Source: an uncultured Bacilli bacterium
Lineage (GTDB): Bacteria > Bacillota_I > Bacilli_A > RF39 > UBA660
DNA: 41,980 nt
Direction of reading: 5' to 3'
Assembly: GCA_947625085.1 (NCBI GenBank)
Contig: CANQMV010000003.1
Coordinates: 1-41,980, forward strand
Each line of letters opens with the position of its first letter. Position 1 is the stretch's first letter. Positions 864 through 22,119 of this stretch are shown piece after piece. The position numbers and the translations under genes are program-made. The notes under the pieces were generated by a model, which saw nothing but the letters and a program-made list of their open reading frames with translations, had not been told where the DNA came from and made no database searches.

Positions 864-2192
864 TTAAAAATTATAAGTTTTAACTTCTGGCAATTCTTTT
901 TCTTTAAAATTAATTTTTTCAGATTCTATATTAGAATTTAATTTATAATCAGGAATTAATCTAGTTTTATAAGGAGGTTTTCTTTCAAGTAAAACTATAA
1001 CTTCAAACAATTTCATTGTTTTTAATTCTTCTACTTCAATTAATCTTTCGTGTTTTTCCTTTTCACCACATAATTTACTAATTTCATCCATTGTATATAA
1101 ATCATTACTTCTTAAATAAATGAGATTACTAAAGCATAATCGTATAATATTTATATCATTATATTTTTGTTTTAAATCAGTAAAACTTTTTATAGAACAT
1201 AAGAATCTTATTCCTATACTTCTTGAATAATTAAGAACTTTAGGAAATTCATAAATAGGAGATAATTCATCAAAATCATCTAATATATAATTAACCATAT
1301 CTTTAGAATCTAAATATTTTTTAACATCATATAGTTGATCCAATAAAAGTGCTACTAAAGAATTGGAAGATAAACTATCAGTTTCAACTATAAAAATAGC
1401 AAACTTGTTTTTAAAGATATCTTCAAATGTGTAATCACTTTTGGAAAGTAATTTTGATAAACCTACCCTACACACAATTGGCTTCATTTTATAATTAAAT
1501 ACTGAAATAATACTATTTTTTGTTTCAACAGGTGCATTTAAAGTTCCAGCTAATAGTATATAAATAGGGTCAGTTTTATCTAAACTATTCATTAAATCTA
1601 AACTTTTTTTATTATCATTTAAACTATTAGCCATTAAATAAATACTATTTAAATTTATTTCATCAATAGATGCATTTTTAAATAAATGTAAAACTAGTCC
1701 TTCAAAAAAATCAATAGTTGTCTTAGTCCAATACGGATCAGACTCATTATTATCAGAAAATAAATAGAAACCTATTTTATCAAGTAATTTATATACTGTA
1801 TCAAAATCATCTTTTTTATAAAATTCATAAGGCAAATATAAAGGGTTAAAACAAGTTCCTAATTTTGGTCTTTCAAAATTAAATACATAAGTTTTATATC
1901 CTTCCTCTTTAAGACTTTTAATATTTTTTTCTAACATTTCACCTTTTTTATCAATAACAACCATTGATTCATGAGATTTAATCGTTGTTCTAATAAATGG
2001 TAAAACTATACTTTGTGTTTTACCACTTCCCATAGCTGAAACTAAAAGTGTATGTCCGTCTTTACTATTTACATAAACACTTCCCTTATCATAAATTATT
2101 GGAATTCCATTTTTAAATTCCTTAGCATTTAACTTATTTTCAGTTAAAACATCTTGCATTTCCTTAGTTGTTGCCCATTTGGCAAATTTCAT
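864..2192 (-). CDS. VirD4/TraG-like coupling protein paralog, no N-terminal TM anchor, degenerate ATPase motifs
   Basis: Collinear with ORF 3016-5364: KWATTKEM vs KWCDIKDM, SAMGSGKT vs GSTGSGKT, IDKKGE vs TDPKGE, FNPL vs WNPL, DPYWTKT vs DPFWEKT, ILDDFDEL vs LLDEFANM. Begins directly at the post-TM motif. Confidence 0.85.
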   Translation of the reverse strand: MKFAKWATTKEMQDVLTENKLNAKEFKNGIPIIYDKGSVYVNSKDGHTLLVSAMGSGKTQSIVLPFIRTTIKSHESMVVIDKKGEMLEKNIKSLKEEGYKTYVFNFERPKLGTCFNPLYLPYEFYKKDDFDTVYKLLDKIGFYLFSDNNESDPYWTKTTIDFFEGLVLHLFKNASIDEINLNSIYLMANSLNDNKKSLDLMNSLDKTDPIYILLAGTLNAPVETKNSIISVFNYKMKPIVCRVGLSKLLSKSDYTFEDIFKNKFAIFIVETDSLSSNSLVALLLDQLYDVKKYLDSKDMVNYILDDFDELSPIYEFPKVLNYSRSIGIRFLCSIKSFTDLKQKYNDINIIRLCFSNLIYLRSNDLYTMDEISKLCGEKEKHERLIEVEELKTMKLFEVIVLLERKPPYKTRLIPDYKLNSNIESEKINFKEKELPEVKTYNF

Positions 2193-2248
2193 AATATCAC
2201 CTCTTGATATATAATTAAAGCAGAATTATTGATATTTTTTAAACAATA

Positions 2249-2277
2249 TTGACTTTTTAACTATTTTTTATTAAAAT
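2249..2277 (+). promoter_or_regulatory. Sigma-A-type promoter for the AraC-family gene
   Basis: TTGACT (2249-2254), 17-nt spacer, TAAAAT (2272-2277); AGGTGA RBS before ATG at 2300. Confidence 0.55.
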
Positions 2278-2299
2278 ATGACAATAAAAAGGTGATATT

Positions 2300-2764
2300 A
2301 TGTATTCTAAACCATTAATAATTAACATCTTAATTTTTTTAAATAATAATTTATATCAAAAAATTGAATTAAATTATTTAGAAGAAATGTTTCATTATAA
2401 TAAATTTTATATTATTCGTTTATTTAAAAAAGAAATTGGAATAACCATCAATGATTATCTTAACAGAATGAGAATTTATAATTCCCTAAATGATATTGTA
2501 AATCCAAATTATTCATGTCTAAAAGTTGCTCTTTTATATGGATTCACTAATCTTGAATATTATTCTGAAACTTTTTCTAAAATTATAGGAATCAGTCCTT
2601 TAAAATATAAAAAATTTTATTTAAAAATGGATAATTTAGATAATGAAATAAGAAATAAAATAATTGAAAATGTCATAAATTTATCTGATTTAAAAGACAA
2701 ATGTAATTACTATATAAAAAATATAAAACCTAAAAATACTATTAAAATCAAAAAATTATATTAA
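2300..2764 (+). CDS. AraC/XylS-family transcriptional regulator (DNA-binding domain only)
   Basis: LEEMFHYNKFYIIRLFKKEIGITINDYLNRMRI...VALLYGFTNLEYYSETFSKIIGISPLKYKK matches the double-HTH AraC signature; no N-terminal sensor domain. Confidence 0.85.
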   Translation: MYSKPLIINILIFLNNNLYQKIELNYLEEMFHYNKFYIIRLFKKEIGITINDYLNRMRIYNSLNDIVNPNYSCLKVALLYGFTNLEYYSETFSKIIGISPLKYKKFYLKMDNLDNEIRNKIIENVINLSDLKDKCNYYIKNIKPKNTIKIKKLY

Positions 2765-3015
2765 AAATATTTATTTTCTATCTTTAAACAAATTCCTTAA
2801 TATAATAAATTAAATCGCTATAATCTTTAATTATTTCATTTATCAAAATATCACCTAAAAAAGAGCCTCATTTTGAAGTTCTTTAAGATGATATACAATT
2901 TTTTATACATATATTTATTTAAAATAATATAATTTTATAAATTTTCTTTTTATTTTTAATAATTTATGAGTGCAATTTAGATTTTTTAGCAATTGTTGTT
3001 TCAAAAAAAAGAAGA

Positions 3016-5364
3016 TTATTCATCGAAGAAGTCATCGAAAAATTCATCATCACTAACTTCTTGATATTTATTATCTTCTTTTAAATCCATATTAGGTTTT
3101 ATATTTTCTTTATTAGCTTCTAAAGATTTTTCTTTAATTTTATTAATTAATTCATCAATATTTTGAGGATTAGTATCTTCCTCTAAATATTCACTATCTT
3201 TAGGTGGAACTTGAAAATCATCTTCTTTAAAAGTATCTAAAAAATCTTTAAAATCTGGTTCCTTAGGTTGATTTACATTAATCTTTTCAGTTAAAATATT
3301 AGCATCTGGAACTTGATTATCTAATTTAGGAACTTCACTTGGAATTTGCCCATTATCATTATCAGATGTTAATTGTTCATTTTCTAAATCAACTTTTTGT
3401 TTAGCTTGCTCTTCTTCCTCTGCTAATCGCTTTTCTTCAGCTTCAATTTCAGCAATCTTAGCATCCAAATTTTGTAATATTTTATCTACATCAATTTTTG
3501 ATTCATCATTTGAAGGTGGAAGATTATTATTTTCAAACAAACCTGGAAATGGTGGTGGAAAAGATGAGCCTCCAAAAGGATTTCCGCCATCAAAGCCCCC
3601 AAAGCCTGGAAATGGTGATGAATTAAGAGCATTTTCTTTCTTTTTATTTTTGACAAATTCGCGAATATCAAATGTCTTTACTTCTCTTTTTTCTCTTGGA
3701 GTAATATTAGAAAGAGATGCTAATTTAAATGGTCTTCCCCAACTCATTTTATAGTCAGGAGTTAATTTAGTTTTAAAAGGTGGCATTCTTAACCGTCTAA
3801 TTATAACTTCATTCATTTTCAATTTTTGCAAATCACTAATGGTAATTAATGGTCTAGTTTCTTCTTTTTCTTTTTCGTCTTTTCCAGTTTTAACTTTTAT
3901 TTCGCCACACATTTTACTAATTTCTTCAAGAGCTCTTAACTCAGTTGAAATTAAATAAATCATGTTACCACAGTTGCCTTTAATAGTTTCAGCATTTTGT
4001 TCTCCATAAACTTCATTTAATTGAGCAAAGTTTTGAATAATCATCGTAAATCGCATTAATCTACTTCTAGCTGCAGTTATCATGGTTGTTACATCTTTTA
4101 AAGGTGGCATATTAGCAAACTCATCTAAAAGAAAATTAGTTCTAATTGGTAATTTTCCATCATGAGCTTGAGCAACATCAATTAAAGTTTCATAAATTTG
4201 TTTAATTAAAATGGTTACTAAAGCATGGTAAGTTTTCTTTTCATCTTGAATAACAATAAAAACAGCCGTTTTTTGTTTTCCAATATCTTGAATATCAAAA
4301 TCACTATAGGATAACATTTCTGATAAATTAGCTCGAGAAGCAAAGAGTTTAATTTTTTGTTTGAAAACGGCAATTATACTCATCTTGGTTTCATTTGGAG
4401 CTAGAATAGTACTTGATGCACCAATATATGCAGCTCCATTTGGGTCTTTACTATTAAAATATTCTTTTACATAAGTACTACCACCAATTTTTTCTTCTCC
4501 AACTGTAGTCATTAAACTAATAGTATTTAAATTAATTTCTTCTTCTTTAGCATCTTCAAATAAACCGAGACAAAGTCCTGAAAAGTAATCAGCTGAAGTT
4601 TTTTCCCAAAAAGGGTCCGCATTTTTATTTGATTCATCATACAAAATATTTAAGGCTAAATCATCTAGTAATTCAATAGCTTTATCTTGATTACCATTTT
4701 TCCATAATTTATAAGGTAAACTTAACGGATTCCATGCATTACCTCGAATTGGGTCACGGAAATTTAAAATAATAATCTTATAGCCTTTAGCTCTTAACAT
4801 ATTACTTTTCTTTTCGTATAATTCTCCCTTAGGGTCGGTGATAATCATTGATTCTCCATGTTTTGATAATAATTCAATCATTGGATAAATAATAGCTGTT
4901 GTTTTACCACTTCCGGTTGAACCTATTACTAAATTATGATATTCACTATCATCAACATAAATTTTCTTACCATCATTTATTAAGGCAATTCCAGCATAAT
5001 CTGAATGAACATCAGTTGGTAAAACCAATTTTAGTTGTTTTTTCATATCTTTAATATCACACCATTTTGAATAACCATCGCTATCAGATTTTTTTTCAGT
5101 TGAAATACCAAAGCCCTTATCAAATTCAAAGAAATAACTTTTACAACTAAGTAAAAGAGCTATAAGTGCTACAAAATAAAAAACTAAAGTAGAAGCAATT
5201 AAATCTTTTCTAAAAGCTAGTAAGGGATTTAACCCTGTAAATTCCCCCGTTGAAGTTAAACTTGATAAATTAGAAATGGCAACTGCAACAATATAAAGAA
5301 GTATTAAACAAATAATTAAAAACTTTTTCATATCGTTAACATCAAAACGTATTTTTAATTTCAT
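3016..5364 (-). CDS. virD4: Type IV coupling protein VirD4/TraG with long acidic C-terminal extension
   Basis: Two N-terminal TM segments, Walker A GSTGSGKT, TDPKGE, WNPL, Walker B LLDEFAN, ARSR..IIQNFAQL..YG; about 200-aa tail ending DDEFFDDFFDE. Confidence 0.92.
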   Translation of the reverse strand: MKLKIRFDVNDMKKFLIICLILLYIVAVAISNLSSLTSTGEFTGLNPLLAFRKDLIASTLVFYFVALIALLLSCKSYFFEFDKGFGISTEKKSDSDGYSKWCDIKDMKKQLKLVLPTDVHSDYAGIALINDGKKIYVDDSEYHNLVIGSTGSGKTTAIIYPMIELLSKHGESMIITDPKGELYEKKSNMLRAKGYKIIILNFRDPIRGNAWNPLSLPYKLWKNGNQDKAIELLDDLALNILYDESNKNADPFWEKTSADYFSGLCLGLFEDAKEEEINLNTISLMTTVGEEKIGGSTYVKEYFNSKDPNGAAYIGASSTILAPNETKMSIIAVFKQKIKLFASRANLSEMLSYSDFDIQDIGKQKTAVFIVIQDEKKTYHALVTILIKQIYETLIDVAQAHDGKLPIRTNFLLDEFANMPPLKDVTTMITAARSRLMRFTMIIQNFAQLNEVYGEQNAETIKGNCGNMIYLISTELRALEEISKMCGEIKVKTGKDEKEKEETRPLITISDLQKLKMNEVIIRRLRMPPFKTKLTPDYKMSWGRPFKLASLSNITPREKREVKTFDIREFVKNKKKENALNSSPFPGFGGFDGGNPFGGSSFPPPFPGLFENNNLPPSNDESKIDVDKILQNLDAKIAEIEAEEKRLAEEEEQAKQKVDLENEQLTSDNDNGQIPSEVPKLDNQVPDANILTEKINVNQPKEPDFKDFLDTFKEDDFQVPPKDSEYLEEDTNPQNIDELINKIKEKSLEANKENIKPNMDLKEDNKYQEVSDDEFFDDFFDE

Positions 5365-5382
5365 TTTCTCACCCTTTCAAAA

Positions 5383-6093
5383 TCATGCAACTTTATTATT
5401 GGTTTTGTTTCTTTTTCGTAAATGAAATACGATTAAAACTACTATTAAGCCAATTACACATAATATTGCAATTGATATATACATAACTAAATTATACACA
5501 TATATTTTCGATTTATCAAATGTTAAATTAATTTCTTTATCAAGAGTTTCGGAATTAATATTCCAAGTATAAGTATTAGTCTTTTTATTATAACTATCAG
5601 CATTATTAGAAGTTACAACATAAGGTAATTTAATATTAATATTTAAATTTGAAATAGGATATCTTACATCCGTTTCATCTTCAACATATGGTAAAAAACC
5701 ATTAGTTTTAATCGTAACTAAATTATTATCAGTTGTTACCTTTATATCTTCAAACATTTGGTCTTTAAAAACCGTTGATGCTGCATATTCAGATAAATTA
5801 TTAAATTTTTTTGAAGCTTCAACTCCTGGTTTAGAAATACTTTCAGTTACCATTTGGTAAGAATAATTATTATTTTTTAAAACACTCATTACTTCATCAT
5901 TATCATAAAAACTTTTAACAACCGTTCTTGGAAATTCTCTATAAAAATTATTAAAATACTCAGTTGTTGCCGTTATAAAAACTTTTTCATCAGCTGATAA
6001 ATCTCTTTTAATATTTAAATTATAATTAACATCAGCACAACCACTTAAAAGAAAAGGAATAATTAAAACAAAAATTAGTTTTTTTAATTTCAT
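5383..6093 (-). CDS. Lipoprotein with C-terminal TM helix (LppM-like)
   Basis: MKLKK plus hydrophobic stretch and lipobox LLSGC; C-terminal hydrophobic helix followed by HLRKRNK. The LppM-like resemblance is from pattern recall only. Confidence 0.6.
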   Translation of the reverse strand: MKLKKLIFVLIIPFLLSGCADVNYNLNIKRDLSADEKVFITATTEYFNNFYREFPRTVVKSFYDNDEVMSVLKNNNYSYQMVTESISKPGVEASKKFNNLSEYAASTVFKDQMFEDIKVTTDNNLVTIKTNGFLPYVEDETDVRYPISNLNINIKLPYVVTSNNADSYNKKTNTYTWNINSETLDKEINLTFDKSKIYVYNLVMYISIAILCVIGLIVVLIVFHLRKRNKTNNKVA

Positions 6094-6097
6094 CTTC

Positions 6098-8641
6098 TTA
6101 CCTCCTTGAAAGAACTACAAATGATTGACTAGCATTAGCAACACTTACTATATCACTTTCAAAGTCAGCCCAATAATTATCACGTGATGAACTTTTTGAA
6201 CCAGGGTCCCATACTAATACCTTGTTTCTTTCATCCTCCGTTTTAACTCCAACTAAGGCTATATAATGTCCACTTGAAGTTTTATATCTTTTAGCATTAG
6301 GAGCAATTCTTGCAACAACAACACTATTTCCAGTTGCAAGGTCACTAAGCAATTTATTAAGACCATTTTTATCATTTTTTAAAACCGTATAAGATGATAA
6401 ATTATAAAGACTAGCAGCAGATACTGCATAACTTGACCTATCACCATTGCATCGTCCAGCACTTTTTAATTTTTGACTTATTTCAAGCGGGTCATGTCTT
6501 TGATTAGTTAATAAAGAAACTGCAATTGCTGTTGATGATACACTACAACCTCTTGCAGAAATAGTACCACCTTCACAAAAACTATTGCTGCCTTTATAAT
6601 CAGATTGATAAAAATGAAAATCTTCGTTTAATTTAATACTTCCTTCATAATCTTCTTCGGTTTCAAAGTATAAACCTTCTTTGATATTGATAATATCAAA
6701 ATCAATCGCTGAAAAATATTTATTTAAAATTTCAATATAAGTCATACCATTTTTAGCATCATTCATTGCTTCAACTTGAGGTAAAGCATACCCTGGAACA
6801 TAATTATCGTTAGAAGTATTGTTATAATGATGTAAACTTTGTACATCTTTACTTCCAGTAAAAGTTTCTGGGGTTACGCCTTTTTTTACAATAACATCAC
6901 CAAATATTTCTCCAATTATTTCATCCAAAAAAGCATTTTGTTCTTCTGTTAAAGGTCTATGAGGAGTTACGCCTGAAAAACGATTAGTTCCAGTATAAGC
7001 GGTACCATATTTATGATTTCCATAAAAATATTGACAACCATAATGAGGGTCACAAGTTACTTGTCTGCAATTGCCAGTTGGAAAATAAAATTCCCCCGTT
7101 TTTAAATCAAAACCACTTTTGGAATCATTTAACATAAACGATAAGGCAACAATAGAAAGGGCCTTAATTCCTTCACGATACTCATCTTTCATGTAACTTT
7201 GAACTTCTCCCATTATAGTCCCTTTTATATAATCAGTTAAATTAAGAAAAGTTGGATATTCTGTTCCTTCATTAGTTAAGGGATTATTATAAACTGTCAA
7301 ACCATTTAAAATTTTTATTGTATAAGGGGTAAAACAAGTTTGTAAATAAACTGCACCTGAATCTGATACAAAATTAGAACTAACTGCTTTATCCTCAAAC
7401 ATATTTCTTGCAATATCTGCAAAATTATAAATATTATTTAATAAATTTCTTTTTGAATTTTCATCATTATTAACTAAAAATTCACTGTAATATGAAGTTA
7501 AAAAATCACTCTCTAATAAATTATTATAAGTTACCCCATCTATTTCTATATCTGTTTTATAAGTATTATTTTCATCTTTTTTTATCATTAAAGAGGCAAC
7601 TACGCCAATTTTTTTAGTTGCTGAAGTATAATCAATAGTTGTTCCCTCAGAAGTTTCTGTTTCAGTAGAATTATTTTCAGAGCCTGCTGTTGGTTCTTTA
7701 TTTAAACTATCTAAAGCATTTTCTAAGTCTGCATCTGTTATTCCTGAATCAGTTGAAAACAAATCATCTATTGGTTTATTCATATAACGATATACTAAAA
7801 TTGATTGTAATAAATATTTATCTATAGTAACTCCATATTTTTCTTTATAGTCATTAATTGTTTCTTCAATCTTATCATAAAATTCTTTTTCTAACTTTTG
7901 TCTTTCCGGGTCAGACTCTGAAAAAATATATGAAGAATTTTCAGTATTATTATATACTAAGTCAACAAAAAATTGATAAATTGCTATAAAGGGGCTAAAA
8001 AAATTTACGACTAAAATAATAACAAGAATAGCACCGATAATGGGAATAATTATAGGTGAAATCAAAGAAATAATTTTAACTATTCGACTAACTTTACCAA
8101 TATTTTTGACAATATCATTAGCTTCCGTATCATTTTCTTCTGTTACTGAATCAGTAGTTTCAGAATCAGTAGTATTGTTATTGCTATCATTAGTAGTTGA
8201 AGCTAAATTACTTTCATTTAAAAACCGATTTCTAAGCGATTGATTTTGATGTCTATTTTTTAAAGCCTCCGGAACATCAGAAGTTTGGTTAGAAAGATTA
8301 GAGTTTAATGGTTGACTTCTTCTTGGAAGATTTAAATTTCTATTATTTAAAGTACCACTTCCACTACTTTTATCTATTACATTAGAAGCAACGTCAACTG
8401 CTCCACTATCATTAAGTTTTTTATTTAATTTATTTGCAATTGGAACTTTGGAAATAGCTTCTCCTACCCCTTGTTCAATTTTCTGCCCTATTTTAGTTTG
8501 AGAAATTTTATCATAAGCAATATTTCCAAGTGTTCCTCCAAAGTAAGTAGCTGCTGCTTTACCAGCAGTATGAGCCGTATTAGTACCAGCTTGCTCTAAT
8601 TTTTGTTTTTCTTCTTTTTCATCTTCATTCATACGACTCAC
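6098..8641 (-). CDS. Membrane-anchored SpoIID/LytB-like plus peptidase C39-like cell-wall hydrolase (VirB1 analogue)
   Basis: TM near aa 190-225. LTDYIKGTIMGEV..EGIKALSIVALSF and ALPQVEAMNDAKNGMTYIEILNKYF match SpoIID/LytB motifs. C-terminal YQSD...RGCSVSSTAIAVS...SGHYIALVG...VWDPG gives the Q-C-H-D C39-like catalytic set. Confidence 0.7.
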   Translation of the reverse strand: MSRMNEDEKEEKQKLEQAGTNTAHTAGKAAATYFGGTLGNIAYDKISQTKIGQKIEQGVGEAISKVPIANKLNKKLNDSGAVDVASNVIDKSSGSGTLNNRNLNLPRRSQPLNSNLSNQTSDVPEALKNRHQNQSLRNRFLNESNLASTTNDSNNNTTDSETTDSVTEENDTEANDIVKNIGKVSRIVKIISLISPIIIPIIGAILVIILVVNFFSPFIAIYQFFVDLVYNNTENSSYIFSESDPERQKLEKEFYDKIEETINDYKEKYGVTIDKYLLQSILVYRYMNKPIDDLFSTDSGITDADLENALDSLNKEPTAGSENNSTETETSEGTTIDYTSATKKIGVVASLMIKKDENNTYKTDIEIDGVTYNNLLESDFLTSYYSEFLVNNDENSKRNLLNNIYNFADIARNMFEDKAVSSNFVSDSGAVYLQTCFTPYTIKILNGLTVYNNPLTNEGTEYPTFLNLTDYIKGTIMGEVQSYMKDEYREGIKALSIVALSFMLNDSKSGFDLKTGEFYFPTGNCRQVTCDPHYGCQYFYGNHKYGTAYTGTNRFSGVTPHRPLTEEQNAFLDEIIGEIFGDVIVKKGVTPETFTGSKDVQSLHHYNNTSNDNYVPGYALPQVEAMNDAKNGMTYIEILNKYFSAIDFDIINIKEGLYFETEEDYEGSIKLNEDFHFYQSDYKGSNSFCEGGTISARGCSVSSTAIAVSLLTNQRHDPLEISQKLKSAGRCNGDRSSYAVSAASLYNLSSYTVLKNDKNGLNKLLSDLATGNSVVVARIAPNAKRYKTSSGHYIALVGVKTEDERNKVLVWDPGSKSSSRDNYWADFESDIVSVANASQSFVVLSRR

Positions 8642-18170: not shown

Positions 18171-18875
18171 CTAATCTTTTTTATTTATAATAAATTCTCT
18201 TAGCATTTTGGTTAAAGCGCGTTTTTCAATACGGGAGACATAACTTCTTGAAATATGTAATTTTTTAGCGATTTCTTTTTGAGTTAATTCATCTTGATTA
18301 TTAAGTCCATAACGATAAGCAATTATTTCTTTTTCTCTTTTAGTTAAAACTTTAACATATTCACTTAATAATTTAATATTTTCTTTTTGATATAAATCAA
18401 GAGCAAAATCTGGTTTATCTGATTTTAATACATCAACAATTGTTATTTCATTGCCATCTTTATCAAAACCTATGCTTTCATTTATGGATATATTTTTATT
18501 ATATTTATTATTACTTCTGTAATACATTAAAATTTCGTTTTGAATACAACGAGCTGAATAAGTCGTAAGTCTTACGTTTTTATCTTTTGAATAAGTATCT
18601 ATTCCTTTAATAAGTCCAATTGTTCCAATGGAAATTAAATCATCTTGAAAGGATACATCATGTTCAAATTTTTTTACTATATGAGCTACTAATCTTAAAT
18701 TATGTTCTATTAATTTACTACGAGCTTGTTCTTTTTCTTCCTTTGAACCTTCTTTCATAAGTCTTATGCATTCATCTTCTTCATTTTTTGATAAGGGCTC
18801 AGGAAATAAATTATTAGAATAACTTCCTGTAAAAAAAAGCATTTCTTTAATGATATTAATTAAATTTAAAAACAT
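18171..18875 (-). CDS. sigK: Sporulation sigma factor pro-SigK
   Basis: Hydrophobic pro-sequence then FPEPLS..EE; LIEHNLRLVAHIVKKF, DLISIGTIGLIKGIDTY, TYSARCIQNEILM, TQKEIAKKLHISRSYVSRIEKRAL. Uninterrupted (no skin-type insertion). Confidence 0.88.
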   Translation of the reverse strand: MFLNLINIIKEMLFFTGSYSNNLFPEPLSKNEEDECIRLMKEGSKEEKEQARSKLIEHNLRLVAHIVKKFEHDVSFQDDLISIGTIGLIKGIDTYSKDKNVRLTTYSARCIQNEILMYYRSNNKYNKNISINESIGFDKDGNEITIVDVLKSDKPDFALDLYQKENIKLLSEYVKVLTKREKEIIAYRYGLNNQDELTQKEIAKKLHISRSYVSRIEKRALTKMLREFIINKKD

Positions 18876-18932: not shown

Positions 18933-18959
18933 ACAGATAGTTCTGATAAAACTATCTGT
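18933..18959. terminator. 10-bp hairpin, probable terminator
   Basis: ACAGATAGTT-ctgataa-AACTATCTGT perfect stem. Confidence 0.5.
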
Positions 18960-19487
18960 AATGAGTTTAGAAAAAGTTGTACCATTTATATTATTTATTA
19001 AATAATATAAATTTTTTAATAAATATTATCAGTATTTACAACAACTACTTATCTTTGAGTTTCTCCTCTCAAAACAATTGTCCTACTTAGTGGCGATAAA
19101 GATTATACTTTTGATATAATTTTTCTTACCAGATAACTTTCTACTAAATTGCTAAAGTATTAATTAATAATACTTATTACCCACTAGGTAATCAAAGAAT
19201 AAAGTTAATTATTCTAAATAGCTAATCAAAGCTATAATATAAATTAAAATCATTTAATTTATATAAAGACTAAAATATAAATTCCAAAAGAATATATATT
19301 GAGTCCATCACTTATAATAAATATTCAAAAGAATAAATATTATAGTCGAAGCAATTCACATAGAGTTGTTATTCTTACTAAGCAATTATAATTTATCATA
19401 TAGTTCGACAGAAGTCAACAAATTTTATGATTTTTTTTAAATTATTTACAATTTGACATTAAGGTGTAAATTTAGTTTCCCTTGATA

Positions 19488-20747
19488 TTACTCATTAATA
19501 ATATCTTCACTATTTTCTTTTGTACTATTTATGCCTTGTTTTATAGCCCTTGAACATTCTTCGACTTTCCTACTTCCAATAATATTATTTGCAAATATTA
19601 TAATATTTGGTACTAAAAATATTAAAACCGCGGCTATTATTCTTGTTGTCATTTTCTTAAAAGCATTTTGAATACCATCTTTATCATCTATAAATACTAC
19701 TTTAGCAAAATCAAAAGTTGTTAATAAAATTAATAATATTGGAATACCTATATATATAGTTTTAATAACATTATTATTTAAAAAATTTAAAAAATCAGTT
19801 CCAAAAAGGTTTTCACAAGTTTCAGTTAAATCGTCTTTGCGGTCAATTAAACTAAGATAATATTTACTTAATATATAAACATTATTGGTATTTATCTCAA
19901 CTTTTTCATTAAGTTTGTTAAGGTCATTAGTAAATCTCCAAACATTGGCTTTCTTATTTTCGTCATATTCTTTTGTTTCAACTAAATATCTTGGATATTT
20001 GTCAGTATTTTTGTTATCAAGAATATTTTTCAAATCTCCAACGTCATCATCATTTACATCAAATTTAATATAAATTACATGAGAATCTGAATTAGAAGCT
20101 CCACTGGTCCATATAGTTCCTGTATATTCACCATTAACAGTTACATTAGTCTTAGCTATAGTTATTTTTGATTTGCCATAAACTTGATAATAAATTAAGC
20201 CATCAATAACTAGTTCTGTCCCCTCGTAAGAAGTTTGGCCTTCATATTCTCCACCTGATGTTTCTGTCTTTTTTATCCATGTTCCCATCTCCCAACAATT
20301 AGTTGTAATTCCCGCTGCTTCATTACAAACTTGCTGATTTGGTGATTGAATTGTTTCAAAATCAGTTAGGGAAATAGAACCTCCTTCATAATTATTAGAA
20401 GTTGTACGTAGAAATGCATAATATACCTGAGAAGGACAACTATCATTATTATCAAAATATGAAGCAAAAAAAGAACTATCTTGGTCTCCACTTATTACAC
20501 CATTAACCATATTAGTTCGGGTAGAAACACTAGCATATTTGCCAAATAACTCAAATGTCATTTGTTTTTTTTGATTAATAGTAAATATAAAAGTATTTGA
20601 AGCTTCTATAGCATCGGATGAGCCTGAACTATAATAAACACAATCTAGTCCACCAGATGGAACAGCAGCTTGAACATCCATTATATTTAAAAAATTAAAT
20701 GTAAAAAAACATAAACCAATTAATAAAGCTACTTTAACTTTTTTCAT
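19488..20747 (-). CDS. Secreted-domain protein with C-terminal VirB2/TrbC-like pilin hairpin
   Basis: Signal peptide ending VQA-A; ~300-aa polar, Cys-containing domain; C-terminus TCENLFG...IGIPILLILLTTFDFAKVVFIDDKDGIQNAFKKMTTRIIAAVLIFLVPNII...C has the two-helix VirB2-like pattern. Confidence 0.65.
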   Translation of the reverse strand: MKKVKVALLIGLCFFTFNFLNIMDVQAAVPSGGLDCVYYSSGSSDAIEASNTFIFTINQKKQMTFELFGKYASVSTRTNMVNGVISGDQDSSFFASYFDNNDSCPSQVYYAFLRTTSNNYEGGSISLTDFETIQSPNQQVCNEAAGITTNCWEMGTWIKKTETSGGEYEGQTSYEGTELVIDGLIYYQVYGKSKITIAKTNVTVNGEYTGTIWTSGASNSDSHVIYIKFDVNDDDVGDLKNILDNKNTDKYPRYLVETKEYDENKKANVWRFTNDLNKLNEKVEINTNNVYILSKYYLSLIDRKDDLTETCENLFGTDFLNFLNNNVIKTIYIGIPILLILLTTFDFAKVVFIDDKDGIQNAFKKMTTRIIAAVLIFLVPNIIIFANNIIGSRKVEECSRAIKQGINSTKENSEDIINE

Positions 20748-20799
20748 AAGTGCACCTCTTGAAAATATTTTACCATAAAATAAAAAGTTTTAAAAGAAC

Positions 20800-22119
20800 T
20801 TATTCAAACTCTTTTAAAACTTCATTAAGCTCACTTAAATCAGTATCTTCTTTTTCAATTTTTTTATCAAACCATAGAGGTAAATTACTATTATCTTCAA
20901 AATAACTTTTATTAGTATTTTTATAGTCACCTTTAAAAATTGTTTTCTTTAATTTTTTATGTTCCTTCCGACAAACTTCCATAGCATCAACAACTGTTTC
21001 AACCTTTAAACGTTTCCACTGCCCAACGATTGTCTCAATATAGTCTTTATTTAATTTCTTATTATTGATTTTTAAAACATAATCGATTAAAACATTAACT
21101 ACTCCCGGATTTAATTTTTGTTCAAGCATTAAATTTTCCAATAACTTTTTATCACGATTAGTAGGTTCAACATTACCATAACTTTTCTTTAAAAAATCAT
21201 AAGGACTTGTATTTTCAAACATATAAATCATTTTAGCCAGTTTAGAATCAGACCCCAGTGGCGTTTTTAAATACTCAGGCTGACGATTATAAATTAAAGT
21301 TGGAAGTCTTCCATTATTTTCAAACTGATAATAATTTCTAGCACTTTTTCGAAGTTCATTTTTATCTATTAGACCTCTTTCATTTAGAGAACTTCGAACC
21401 AACCCTTGCATATTTAAATTATCAATTTTATAAATATAAGCTAAATTTAAAATTAATTCTTTAGTATCTTCATTAAAACATTTATCACTTATTAGTCTTT
21501 TTGGAATACTATCAATTAATAAATTAATATCAAAATTACTTTTTATAACTAAATTTAACTTTTTATCATTCTTAATATCCCCGTTATCAAAAAGTAAATT
21601 CGTATTTGTAATCGGAGAAAAAACTTCTTCAAAACTTAAAGTAATATCATTATAATCTTTTACGGTAATTCTTGGAACTTTATAATAAGTTTGTAGTTTT
21701 TCATATTCAACTGTTCCAATGTTATTATATAAAACAATATTTAAAATTGGATGATTAAAAAACTCATAAGCACTGATAGGAGAATAAAGTATATAAATAT
21801 AACTATTAATTTCCCCTTCTTTAAGATACGTTTTTAAAAGACCAATTCCTTCAAGTTTATTTCTAGCAGTTAAAATATTTTCTAATTTTAATTGCATACT
21901 AGTCATTAAATGATGATGGGTAAATTCTTCACTTTCAATCTTTTTTTTATTTAAATCATTAAATAACGTTAAATATAAAGAAACCGCGGTAAAACCAATA
22001 ATTGGTTGATATAAATTTGTTAATATTTTAATTTTTTCTGAACTAATAATGCCTTTATTATAGACAATATAATTATCAGCCGGGGTTAAATTATAAACTT
22101 GTTGCATAAATCCTCCCAT
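20800..22119 (-). CDS. dnaB: Replication initiation and membrane attachment protein DnaB (Bacillus-type helicase loader, not the helicase)
   Basis: ILTNLYQPIIG..AVSLYLTL, KLEGIGLLKTY, and C-terminal DnaD-like GVVNVLIDYVL..W..LKVETVVDAM. Confidence 0.9.
   Translation of the reverse strand: MGGFMQQVYNLTPADNYIVYNKGIISSEKIKILTNLYQPIIGFTAVSLYLTLFNDLNKKKIESEEFTHHHLMTSMQLKLENILTARNKLEGIGLLKTYLKEGEINSYIYILYSPISAYEFFNHPILNIVLYNNIGTVEYEKLQTYYKVPRITVKDYNDITLSFEEVFSPITNTNLLFDNGDIKNDKKLNLVIKSNFDINLLIDSIPKRLISDKCFNEDTKELILNLAYIYKIDNLNMQGLVRSSLNERGLIDKNELRKSARNYYQFENNGRLPTLIYNRQPEYLKTPLGSDSKLAKMIYMFENTSPYDFLKKSYGNVEPTNRDKKLLENLMLEQKLNPGVVNVLIDYVLKINNKKLNKDYIETIVGQWKRLKVETVVDAMEVCRKEHKKLKKTIFKGDYKNTNKSYFEDNSNLPLWFDKKIEKEDTDLSELNEVLKEFE

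Follow-up and report, generated by a model that had tools for sequence, protein, structure and literature searches.

A gene behind dnaB encoding a pilin-like hairpin protein with a variable head, probably linked to a chromosomal type IV secretion system of uncultured gut Bacilli

Introduction

Why does a gene for an exported protein with a pilin-like C-terminus lie directly behind a replication gene, apart from the type IV secretion system (T4SS) genes of the same contig? The question is raised by an open reading frame (ORF) of 419 amino acids (aa) at 19488..20747 (stop codon 19488-19490, ORF list) on contig CANQMV010000003.1 of the uncultured Bacilli assembly GCA_947625085.1. The window, meaning the whole stretch of 41,980 nucleotides that was analyzed, is this complete contig (C3); the assembly has a size of 1.19 Mb in 96 contigs and is 92.6% complete. 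All features of the window given below lie on the (-) strand. The product of the target gene is referred to as a headed hairpin protein. A preliminary description of the locus had proposed that it is an adhesin-bearing VirB2-like pilin, displayed by the T4SS and encoded by a gene detached from the T4SS operon.

Gram-positive T4SSs are said to encode no pilins and to rely on wall-anchored adhesins, and the sole exception discussed, the pilin array of Patescibacteria, is regarded as remarkable and uncharacterized (PMC12857230). A full-text literature search returned nothing on such hairpins in Bacilli. We give somewhat better than even chances to the reading in which the target belongs, as the headed member, to a two-part, pilin-like hairpin set of a chromosomal, vertically inherited T4SS in uncultured, small-genome gut Bacilli. 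The protein fits best into a PF18895-like hairpin family associated with a probably domesticated Gram-positive T4SS, as a member that bears a head and whose gene has been relocated.

Results

Domain structure of the headed hairpin protein

The target ORF is single and intact over 419 codons, in stop-rich sequence of ~22-26% GC. Hydropathy and sequence show a Sec-type signal peptide, MKKVKVALLIGLCFFTFNFLNIMDVQA (residues 1-27, 20667..20747), with a predicted cleavage between its end, ..DVQA, and the Ala that follows; Ala27 is conserved in at least 90% of the homologs. A lipoprotein reading of Cys13 was dismissed, as there is no lipobox and Leu occupies position -1 relative to this Cys. The signal peptide is followed by a variable ectodomain (19848..20666), made up of a head (residues 28-170) and a neck (residues 171-300), with Cys residues at 36, 104, 141 and 151.

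Ahead of the hairpin lies a conserved pre-helix (19770..19847) of the form TC..LFG..FL.FL..NV, seen in the alignments and containing the invariant Cys311; AlphaFold2 predicts it as helical over domain-model residues 3-20. It is followed by two hydrophobic stretches, residues ~327-353 and ~366-392, connected by the loop DDKDGIQNAFKKMTTR, with Cys311 before and Cys398 after the pair. Helix 1 (19689..19769) carries the invariant Pro336 and the near-invariant Asp346, and helix 2 (19572..19652) carries R369 and the motif ..AVLIFLVP..; both were delimited by hydropathy, alignments and AlphaFold2. Given a signal peptide and two transmembrane segments, the inter-helix segment DDKDGIQNAFKK (19653..19688) would be cytoplasmic in the membrane state, and the C-terminal tail (19491..19571) would be extracellular. 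The conserved Cys398 of the tail is invariant in one alignment, and conserved at 90% or more in the other.

The AlphaFold2 model of the hairpin domain, built on a 61-sequence alignment, contains two helices of 35-36 residues each, at model residues 22-57 and 61-95 (protein residues 317-352 and 356-390), with predicted local distance difference test (pLDDT) values of ~84-91 (overall 78), together with flanking helices. This predicted two-helix fold is compatible with a pilin hairpin, yet it is not diagnostic of one. The signal peptide, Cys-containing head and Cys-flanked two-helix hairpin of the preliminary description agree with the ORF list, hydropathy and sequence. Its further wording, a Ser/Thr/Asn-rich, Cys-containing domain, is correct, although the enrichment is mild (9.9% Thr, 9.2% Ser and 9.2% Asn over residues 28-320).

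The hairpin region of the target is 57% identical to that of its congeners, and the head and neck 12-15%. Pfam, NCBIfam and PHROGs, run on the whole protein, revealed no domain in the head, and a jackhmmer search with residues 1-310 found no match among all ORFs of 73 related loci, congeners included. The full-length AlphaFold2 model has a mean pLDDT of 54, mostly below 50 in the head, and a Foldseek search of this model against the PDB returned nothing at E<1. The target sequence lacks an LPxTG sorting signal, its C-terminus being the hairpin, and no Pfam polymer-adhesin domain was found in the head. By its sequence, the ectodomain of ~270 aa is an orphan, fast-evolving, exported domain. A database search recovered 37 homologs with the architecture of the target (252-545 aa); each has a signal peptide followed by an N-domain that contains Cys and cannot be aligned, and ends in a strongly conserved C-terminus.

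A large family of hairpin proteins

The family signature runs from one Cys to a second one and includes, in between, a helix in which a Pro is invariant and an Asp nearly so, a K/E-rich loop, and the motif K/R-R...AV..F(L/F)(V/I)P. The preliminary description had raised the possibility of a genome-wide family of hairpin fusions and had proposed a profile search for paralogs. Such a search with a family-specific hidden Markov model (HMM) identified six hairpin genes in the assembly: the target, three on contig C53, one on C30 and one on C7. The three genes on C53 are small and arranged in tandem (107, 168 and 269 aa), and their products have an N-terminal hairpin and no signal peptide. An HMM made from the small operon-encoded hairpins alone recovered the C-terminus of the target at E 8.9e-17.

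An HMMER scan of 1.84 billion metagenome cluster representatives yielded 10,859 family members, 8,331 of them at E<=1e-10. Among the best 150 representatives, 128 are proteins of 245-624 aa with the hairpin at the C-terminal end, and the remaining 22 are small. Judged from these searches, the headed hairpin proteins are a very large and diverse class. A family of hairpin fusions thus exists genome-wide, and lineage-wide as well, with differing extracellular domains.

The members on C30 and C7 have the hairpin at the N-terminus. At C30:11316-12359 (-), it is followed by a VanY/M15-like end (SNHGWG...WHIEP), and at C7:15256-16398 (-) by an NlpC/P60-like end (DCSGFV), both assigned by eye. These putative cell-wall hydrolase fusions sit among housekeeping genes such as truB and galE.

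Co-occurrence of the hairpin family with one type of VirB4

The occurrence of the hairpin family was examined in a near sample of 61 genomes (that of the window and 60 relatives), in which a close VirB4 was defined by an identity of at least 62% and the same three-gene split as in the window. The hairpin was present in 39 of the 61 genomes, 38 of which had a close VirB4, and none of the 22 hairpin-free genomes had one. In a class-wide even sample (251 genomes, 160 genera), the hairpin was present in 30 genomes, comprising 28/28 of the taxonomic family of the target, and G042 and G049 from two other families, with up to 16 hairpin copies per genome. The close split VirB4 and the hairpin occurred together in 29 genomes, the hairpin alone in 1, and this VirB4 alone in 0. 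A further 34 genomes have only a distant VirB4 of the type found in integrative and conjugative elements (ICEs), and the hairpin was absent from all of them. In G049 (contig C76), the hairpin genes lie ~3.3 kb upstream of virB4.

The co-occurrence is confounded by shared ancestry; both positives from outside the taxonomic family carry both features. Occurrence of the hairpin independently of virB4 had been named in the preliminary description as grounds for rejecting its proposal; the family instead tracks a single VirB4 type, in 29/30 genomes.

This VirB4 was found in 22/22 congeners at 87-93% identity, and in 13/14 other sampled genera at 66-74%. Its conservation across the genus and the taxonomic family argues that the T4SS is a vertically inherited, host-owned core system and not a mobile element. 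The PF03432 relaxase, the one relaxase family searched for, is absent from the 92.6%-complete assembly.

Genomic context and phylogeny of the hairpin genes

The target lies behind a dnaB-like replication initiation gene (20800..22119; DnaB_2, Pfam), which is the conserved upstream neighbor of the target orthologs (synteny in L009-L011 and L028-L044). The gene order in the genus is FtsK, orf175, DnaB, one or two headed genes, and ThrRS (thrS), with no T4SS gene within 10 kb. Three congeners were checked for a hairpin gene in front of virB6, and none was found there.

In other genera of the taxonomic family, a small hairpin gene (100-135 aa) is followed by a headed gene (165-640 aa) and then by virB6. 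The headed gene in these sister genera encodes a signal peptide, an N-domain and a C-terminal hairpin, and usually ends 3-30 bp before virB6, which is followed on its 3' side by virB3-like, virB4N, virB4C, hydrolase and virD4 genes. The preliminary term "detached" is apt for the target, because the headed and small versions in sister genera lie inside the T4SS operon, directly upstream of virB6.

Contexts were counted for 127 hairpin genes in species-representative and metagenome loci. No more than 6 kb separates 84 of these from virB6, 35 of them headed and 49 small. Another position, within 3 kb downstream of dnaB, is occupied by 23 headed and 0 small genes; the 23 are all close relatives of the target, and there is no T4SS gene in their loci. 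In a maximum-likelihood tree of the hairpin domains (short sequences, with many unresolved forks), the target and the dnaB-linked genes form a clade with a Shimodaira-Hasegawa-like approximate likelihood ratio test (SH-aLRT) support of 96. This clade falls within a larger one (SH-aLRT 93) that includes virB6-adjacent headed genes and the hydrolase fusions, apart from the group of small "first-position" hairpins. Read most simply, the target corresponds to a virB6-adjacent headed gene that has moved. The ancestral position of the headed genes is then 3-30 bp upstream of virB6, with an evolutionary origin in the T4SS operon.

Related records are labeled "MAG: Bacilli bacterium" (MAG, metagenome-assembled genome), "uncultured Tenericutes", "Clostridium sp. 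CAG:302" and "Candidatus Faecimonas", and their sources are rumen, rabbit, deer and human gut. Bacilli-type T4SS and hairpin loci also occur in MAGs labeled Muribaculaceae or Methanobacteriaceae (L031, L077, L080 and L088), most likely as binning contamination of those MAGs.

Relationship of the hairpin to known pilin and ICE families

PF18895 (T4SS_pilin; gathering threshold 26.6 bits) was the only consistent family matched by the aligned hairpin members. With hits counted at E<=0.01, it was matched by 42/61 and 13/25 members of the two alignments, with best E-values of 2.2e-9 and 8.6e-10, respectively, and three homologs with the same architecture as the target have a precomputed PF18895 assignment. 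The target hairpin fits the PF18895 form, a two-helix hydrophobic hairpin of ~70 aa (hydropathy, AlphaFold2). The association with virB4 and virB6 typical of PF18895 proteins holds at the level of the family, and not locally in the genus of the target. On these comparisons, the C-terminal hairpin of the target is a member of a PF18895 "T4SS_pilin"-like family. PF18895 and PF04956 are the models used to call "VirB2-like pilins" in Patescibacteria (PMC12102498). PF04956 (VirB2/TrbC) gave no match in any hairpin family member examined, and the label "VirB2-like" would hold only through PF18895. At 419 aa with an ectodomain of ~270 aa, the target falls outside the size range of VirB2/TrbC proteins, which are small (~70-120 aa) and free of a passenger.

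Among NCBIfam models, the target matches the MMCAP2_0566 family at E 5.8e-5. Its C-terminal domain scores 22.5 and 17.4 bits against Mycoplasma ICE families, far under the curated cut-offs of 90 and 70 and indicative of distant similarity only. Of 61 hairpin family members, 21, 12 and 9 match MMCAP2_0566, Mbov_0395 "pilin-like" and Mbov_0396, respectively. In the M. agalactiae element ICEA, CDS15 and CDS16, beside the VirB4 gene (CDS17), are needed for transfer (PMC6030558). From the gene numbering, CDS15 and CDS16 appear to be equivalent to these Mycoplasma NCBIfam families.

T4SS cluster of the window and the split operon

The T4SS cluster of the window contains a gene for a VirB6-like polytopic protein (11416..13632), followed by VirB3-like/VirB4 genes in three pieces (8663..11377). 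The pieces are consecutive and slightly overlapping, and encode a transmembrane VirB3-like protein of 107 aa, an N-domain of 208 aa and an ATPase of 595 aa; NCBIfam VirB4_plasma matches two of the pieces, and Pfam CagE_TrbE_VirB/AAA_10 the third. The three-gene split, with the same frame sizes, was present in every relative examined, including one from another taxonomic family, which makes it a conserved gene structure rather than a product of frameshift errors. The best match of the window VirB4 is the Mycoplasma ICE VirB4 model of NCBIfam. The rest of the cluster (864..8641, Pfam) encodes an 847-aa C39_2-type hydrolase, a 236-aa membrane protein, a VirD4 of 782 aa and a VirD4-like protein of 442 aa. 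The second VirD4-like gene (864-2192) lies downstream of the main coupling-protein gene; its product matches the T4SS-DNA_transf profile from the first position, and is similar to the 782-aa VirD4 at 1.8e-78.

The family-specific HMM found no hairpin family member in the virB6-virD4 cluster of the window, which bears out the earlier statement that the T4SS operon is without a VirB2-like gene. The N-terminus of the VirB6-like protein (residues 42-105) forms a two-helix hairpin with a motif, ..KRVAISMILIVFVPS.., resembling helix 2 of the family. Its PF18895 score is sub-threshold (22.7 bits against 26.6), yet it is the best PF18895 score of the genome. A reading of this segment as a hidden in-operon pilin was dropped, as the family HMM does not recover VirB6.

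Upstream of virB6, 13814-16710 is filled by genes for two paralogous proteins of 497 and 457 aa, with central hydrophobic segments and long charged tails. Other genera carry hairpin genes at this site, and the congeners have different, unrelated genes there. A sigma-70-family gene (17780-18875), with a SigE/SigK-like N-terminus by eye, and an Hsp20 gene are located upstream of the T4SS cluster, an arrangement also found in at least one congener, G005 (L107 7824-8908).

A second locus, C53:113-5871 (+), encodes two polytopic proteins and two small proteins along with the three tandem small hairpins, next to ppdK. In the congener G007 (L102), the small-hairpin array follows a gene for an ATPase of the T2SSE/VirB11/CpaF family; the matching gene on C53 is cut by the contig end. 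The label "Tad" for this module was dropped, since only the T2SSE-family ATPase was confirmed and the two polytopic proteins are without a Pfam match. Elsewhere in the taxonomic family, the genes for these two small proteins and for the hairpins of the C53-type module run on directly into virB6-virB4. The simplest reading is that an ancestral operon was split three ways in the genus of the target, into the ATPase module and small hairpins by ppdK (C53), the headed gene behind dnaB, and virB6-virD4.

The 52-bp gap between dnaB and the target (20748..20799) contains an extended -10-like promoter match, TTTAAA-16-TG-TAAAAT, and a ribosome-binding site, the good Shine-Dalgarno match AAGAGGTG located 6 nt 5' of the target ATG; these are consensus matches and no proof of function. 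On the other side of the target, in the 612-bp gap to the sigma-factor gene, the Rfam model RF03040 (PGK RNA motif) is matched over its full length at 19019-19107 (71 bits, against a gathering score of 50.8), just upstream of a terminator-like hairpin at 18933-18959.

Discussion

Proposed role of the headed hairpin protein

The target most likely serves a domesticated chromosomal T4SS as a minor or tip subunit, variable and displayed at the surface, and is probably the subunit that makes contact; this role is plausible and unproven. The Sec system would export the head, and the hairpin would insert with its two ends on the outside and the loop on the inside. The headed proteins all have a signal peptide, and the small paralogs, which have only a short N-tail, have none, as a hairpin with N-out, C-out topology requires. 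Cys311 and Cys398, which would then both be outside, may staple the hairpin. The VirB6/VirB4 machine would recognize the conserved hairpin, which might either be extracted into a short VirB2-type fiber made mainly of small paralogs, where the headed protein would be a minor or tip component, or be docked at the channel rim. Contact with target cells or surfaces could then be made by the variable head, in a role analogous to that of VirB5 or PrgB. Because the target groups with the "second position", virB6-adjacent genes, a minor, tip or docking subunit fits better than an adhesin-bearing major pilin. Of the original proposal of an adhesin-bearing pilin displayed by the T4SS, the T4SS-tied hairpin family stands, whereas an adhesin on every subunit of a major pilin is less fitting, given this tree position.

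Several observations weigh against a T4SS-linked, pilin-like function. The target itself is below the PF18895 threshold, its C-terminus scoring 16.2 bits (E 0.011) on its own and the whole protein 13.0 bits. An hhalign comparison of the family alignment with a profile of TrwL/VirB2 relatives, constructed for this analysis, was not significant (probability 2.5%, E 0.019, 33 columns); its single segment superposes the invariant Pro of helix 1 in the hairpin family and in TrwL. A profile search of all PDB sequences gave only spurious matches to the TM5-loop-TM6 region of G protein-coupled receptors, and no solved pilin. With the hairpin-domain model, Foldseek returned no PDB structure below E 4 and none of the solved pilins such as TraA, VirB2, TrwL or CedA1, simple helical hairpins being poorly detected in this way. 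The headed gene is outside the T4SS operon in the genus of the target and unlinked in most congeners, and its present function could have drifted. The hairpin also carries NlpC/P60-like and VanY-like domains at housekeeping loci, as a general-purpose membrane anchor would. Searches for DsbB, VKOR and DsbA-like (Thioredoxin_4) proteins found none, leaving the proposed Cys staple without a known catalyst. No filament has been seen, and sequence comparison shows neither polymerization nor a pilus. Current reviews hold that Gram-positive T4SSs encode no pili (PMC12857230). The preliminary claim of a VirB2-like pilin is supported as membership of a PF18895-like family, without demonstrable homology to canonical VirB2/TrbC (PF04956): neither a Pfam match nor a significant alignment came from the comparisons, which included a profile comparison of the type proposed there.

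Among the alternatives, the most probable is that the hairpin is a generic membrane anchor, tethering extracytoplasmic proteins such as adhesins and cell-wall hydrolases, and that the dnaB-linked gene encodes a variable surface protein independent of the T4SS. The hydrolase fusions amid housekeeping genes are as this would predict, as are the many hairpin copies in some genomes and the location of the target orthologs between dnaB and thrS, far from T4SS genes. An anchor, however, needs no invariant Pro, Asp, Arg and Cys, nor a 57% identical hairpin beside a head at noise level. Its restriction to 30/251 genomes of the class, and there to genomes with one VirB4 type in all but one case, and the ancestral site of the headed genes immediately upstream of virB6, also speak against it, and we consider it unlikely.

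Less likely again is that the hairpins are non-filament channel components, i.e. parts of a membrane translocon that never leave the membrane, with the head as a wall-spanning or gating domain. This is consistent with the distant NCBIfam matches to Mycoplasma ICE membrane proteins, which are needed for transfer in wall-less cells without a known pilus, and with the similar hairpin motif at the N-terminus of VirB6. A head that cannot be aligned between congeners, tandem duplication, and a move out of the operon are all unexpected of a structural part.

In VirB2-type hairpins, as in F and T pili, both termini face the exterior of the pilus. The literal model of the preliminary description, a major pilin in which every subunit of the T4SS pilus bears a ~300-aa passenger to give an adhesive, bottle-brush-like filament, is thereby topologically permitted, and headed forms outnumber small ones 128 to 22 among the best 150 metagenome representatives, but we regard it as improbable, since an excess of headed clusters is expected from faster divergence, operons nearly always pair one or more small conserved hairpin genes with a headed one in separate clades, the pattern of a major and a minor subunit, and, by our own geometric estimate, globules of ~30 kDa on all subunits would be sterically very crowded in a five-start helix that rises by ~12-15 Å.

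Comparison with known systems

A close parallel to the T4SS-linked hairpin set is the chromosomal T4SS of Patescibacteria (Southlakia epibionticum ML1, TM7x; PMC12102498, PMC12857230), which likewise is found in monoderm bacteria with reduced genomes, is related to the MPF-FATA class (MPF, mating-pair formation), and has arrays of divergent two-helix proteins of the PF18895 type (PF18895/PF04956) near virB4 and virB6. The present system differs in its gut Bacilli host, in the signal peptide and variable ectodomain of ~270 aa that precede the hairpin, in the location of the gene behind dnaB, in the two conserved Cys residues around the hairpin, and in the division of VirB4 into three genes. The Mycoplasma ICE proteins encoded next to VirB4 (MMCAP2_0566, Mbov_0395 and Mbov_0396) share a distant hairpin similarity and the closest VirB4 model. 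They belong to mobile ICEs in wall-less hosts that read TGA as Trp, and in MMCAP2_0566 the hairpin precedes a larger domain, whereas the order here is reversed, with the passenger first and a signal peptide needed.

VirB2/TrbC/TraA proteins (PF04956; TrwL of R388) resemble the hairpin in having two long hydrophobic helices, a short charged loop and both ends on the outer side, and the operons of the sister genera follow a similar logic, with pilin-like genes beside virB3, virB4 and virB6. In contrast, the target is 419 aa long, has a Cys pair and no cyclization signal, and is encoded outside the operon. The proposed role in variable surface contact recalls the VirB5 minor pilin and tip adhesin and PrgB (pCF10, LPxTG), and virB5 neighbors virB6 in the VirB operon, as the headed gene does in sister genera. 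There is no sequence similarity to either protein and no LPxTG, and the anchor is a pilin-like hairpin instead of a helical bundle or a sortase signal.

Biological implications

Abundant uncultured gut Bacilli have an apparently host-owned T4SS and a large family of pilin-like hairpins, which in these bacteria have come to carry hypervariable surface domains and putative cell-wall hydrolases. The contribution of this window is a headed gene moved from the operon to a conserved housekeeping site. As a tentative extension, which we think possible though doubtful, these small-genome gut Bacilli may build a VirB2-type (PF18895) fiber on a Gram-positive T4SS, with a shaft of small hairpins that is capped or decorated by interchangeable headed hairpins, in thousands of metagenome variants, as target-recognition modules. 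In the genus of the target, the headed gene would have been uncoupled from the operon of the machine so that specificity could duplicate, diversify and be regulated independently. If true, it would extend pilus-bearing Gram-positive T4SSs beyond Patescibacteria for the first time, and provide the first example of a pilin of this class that bears a passenger domain. The dnaB-linked copy offers a clean single-gene handle for testing the contact role. Should the headed proteins make the contacts of the machine, the choice of cells that these bacteria touch would depend on them, and their more than 10,000 sequence clusters would document such interactions.

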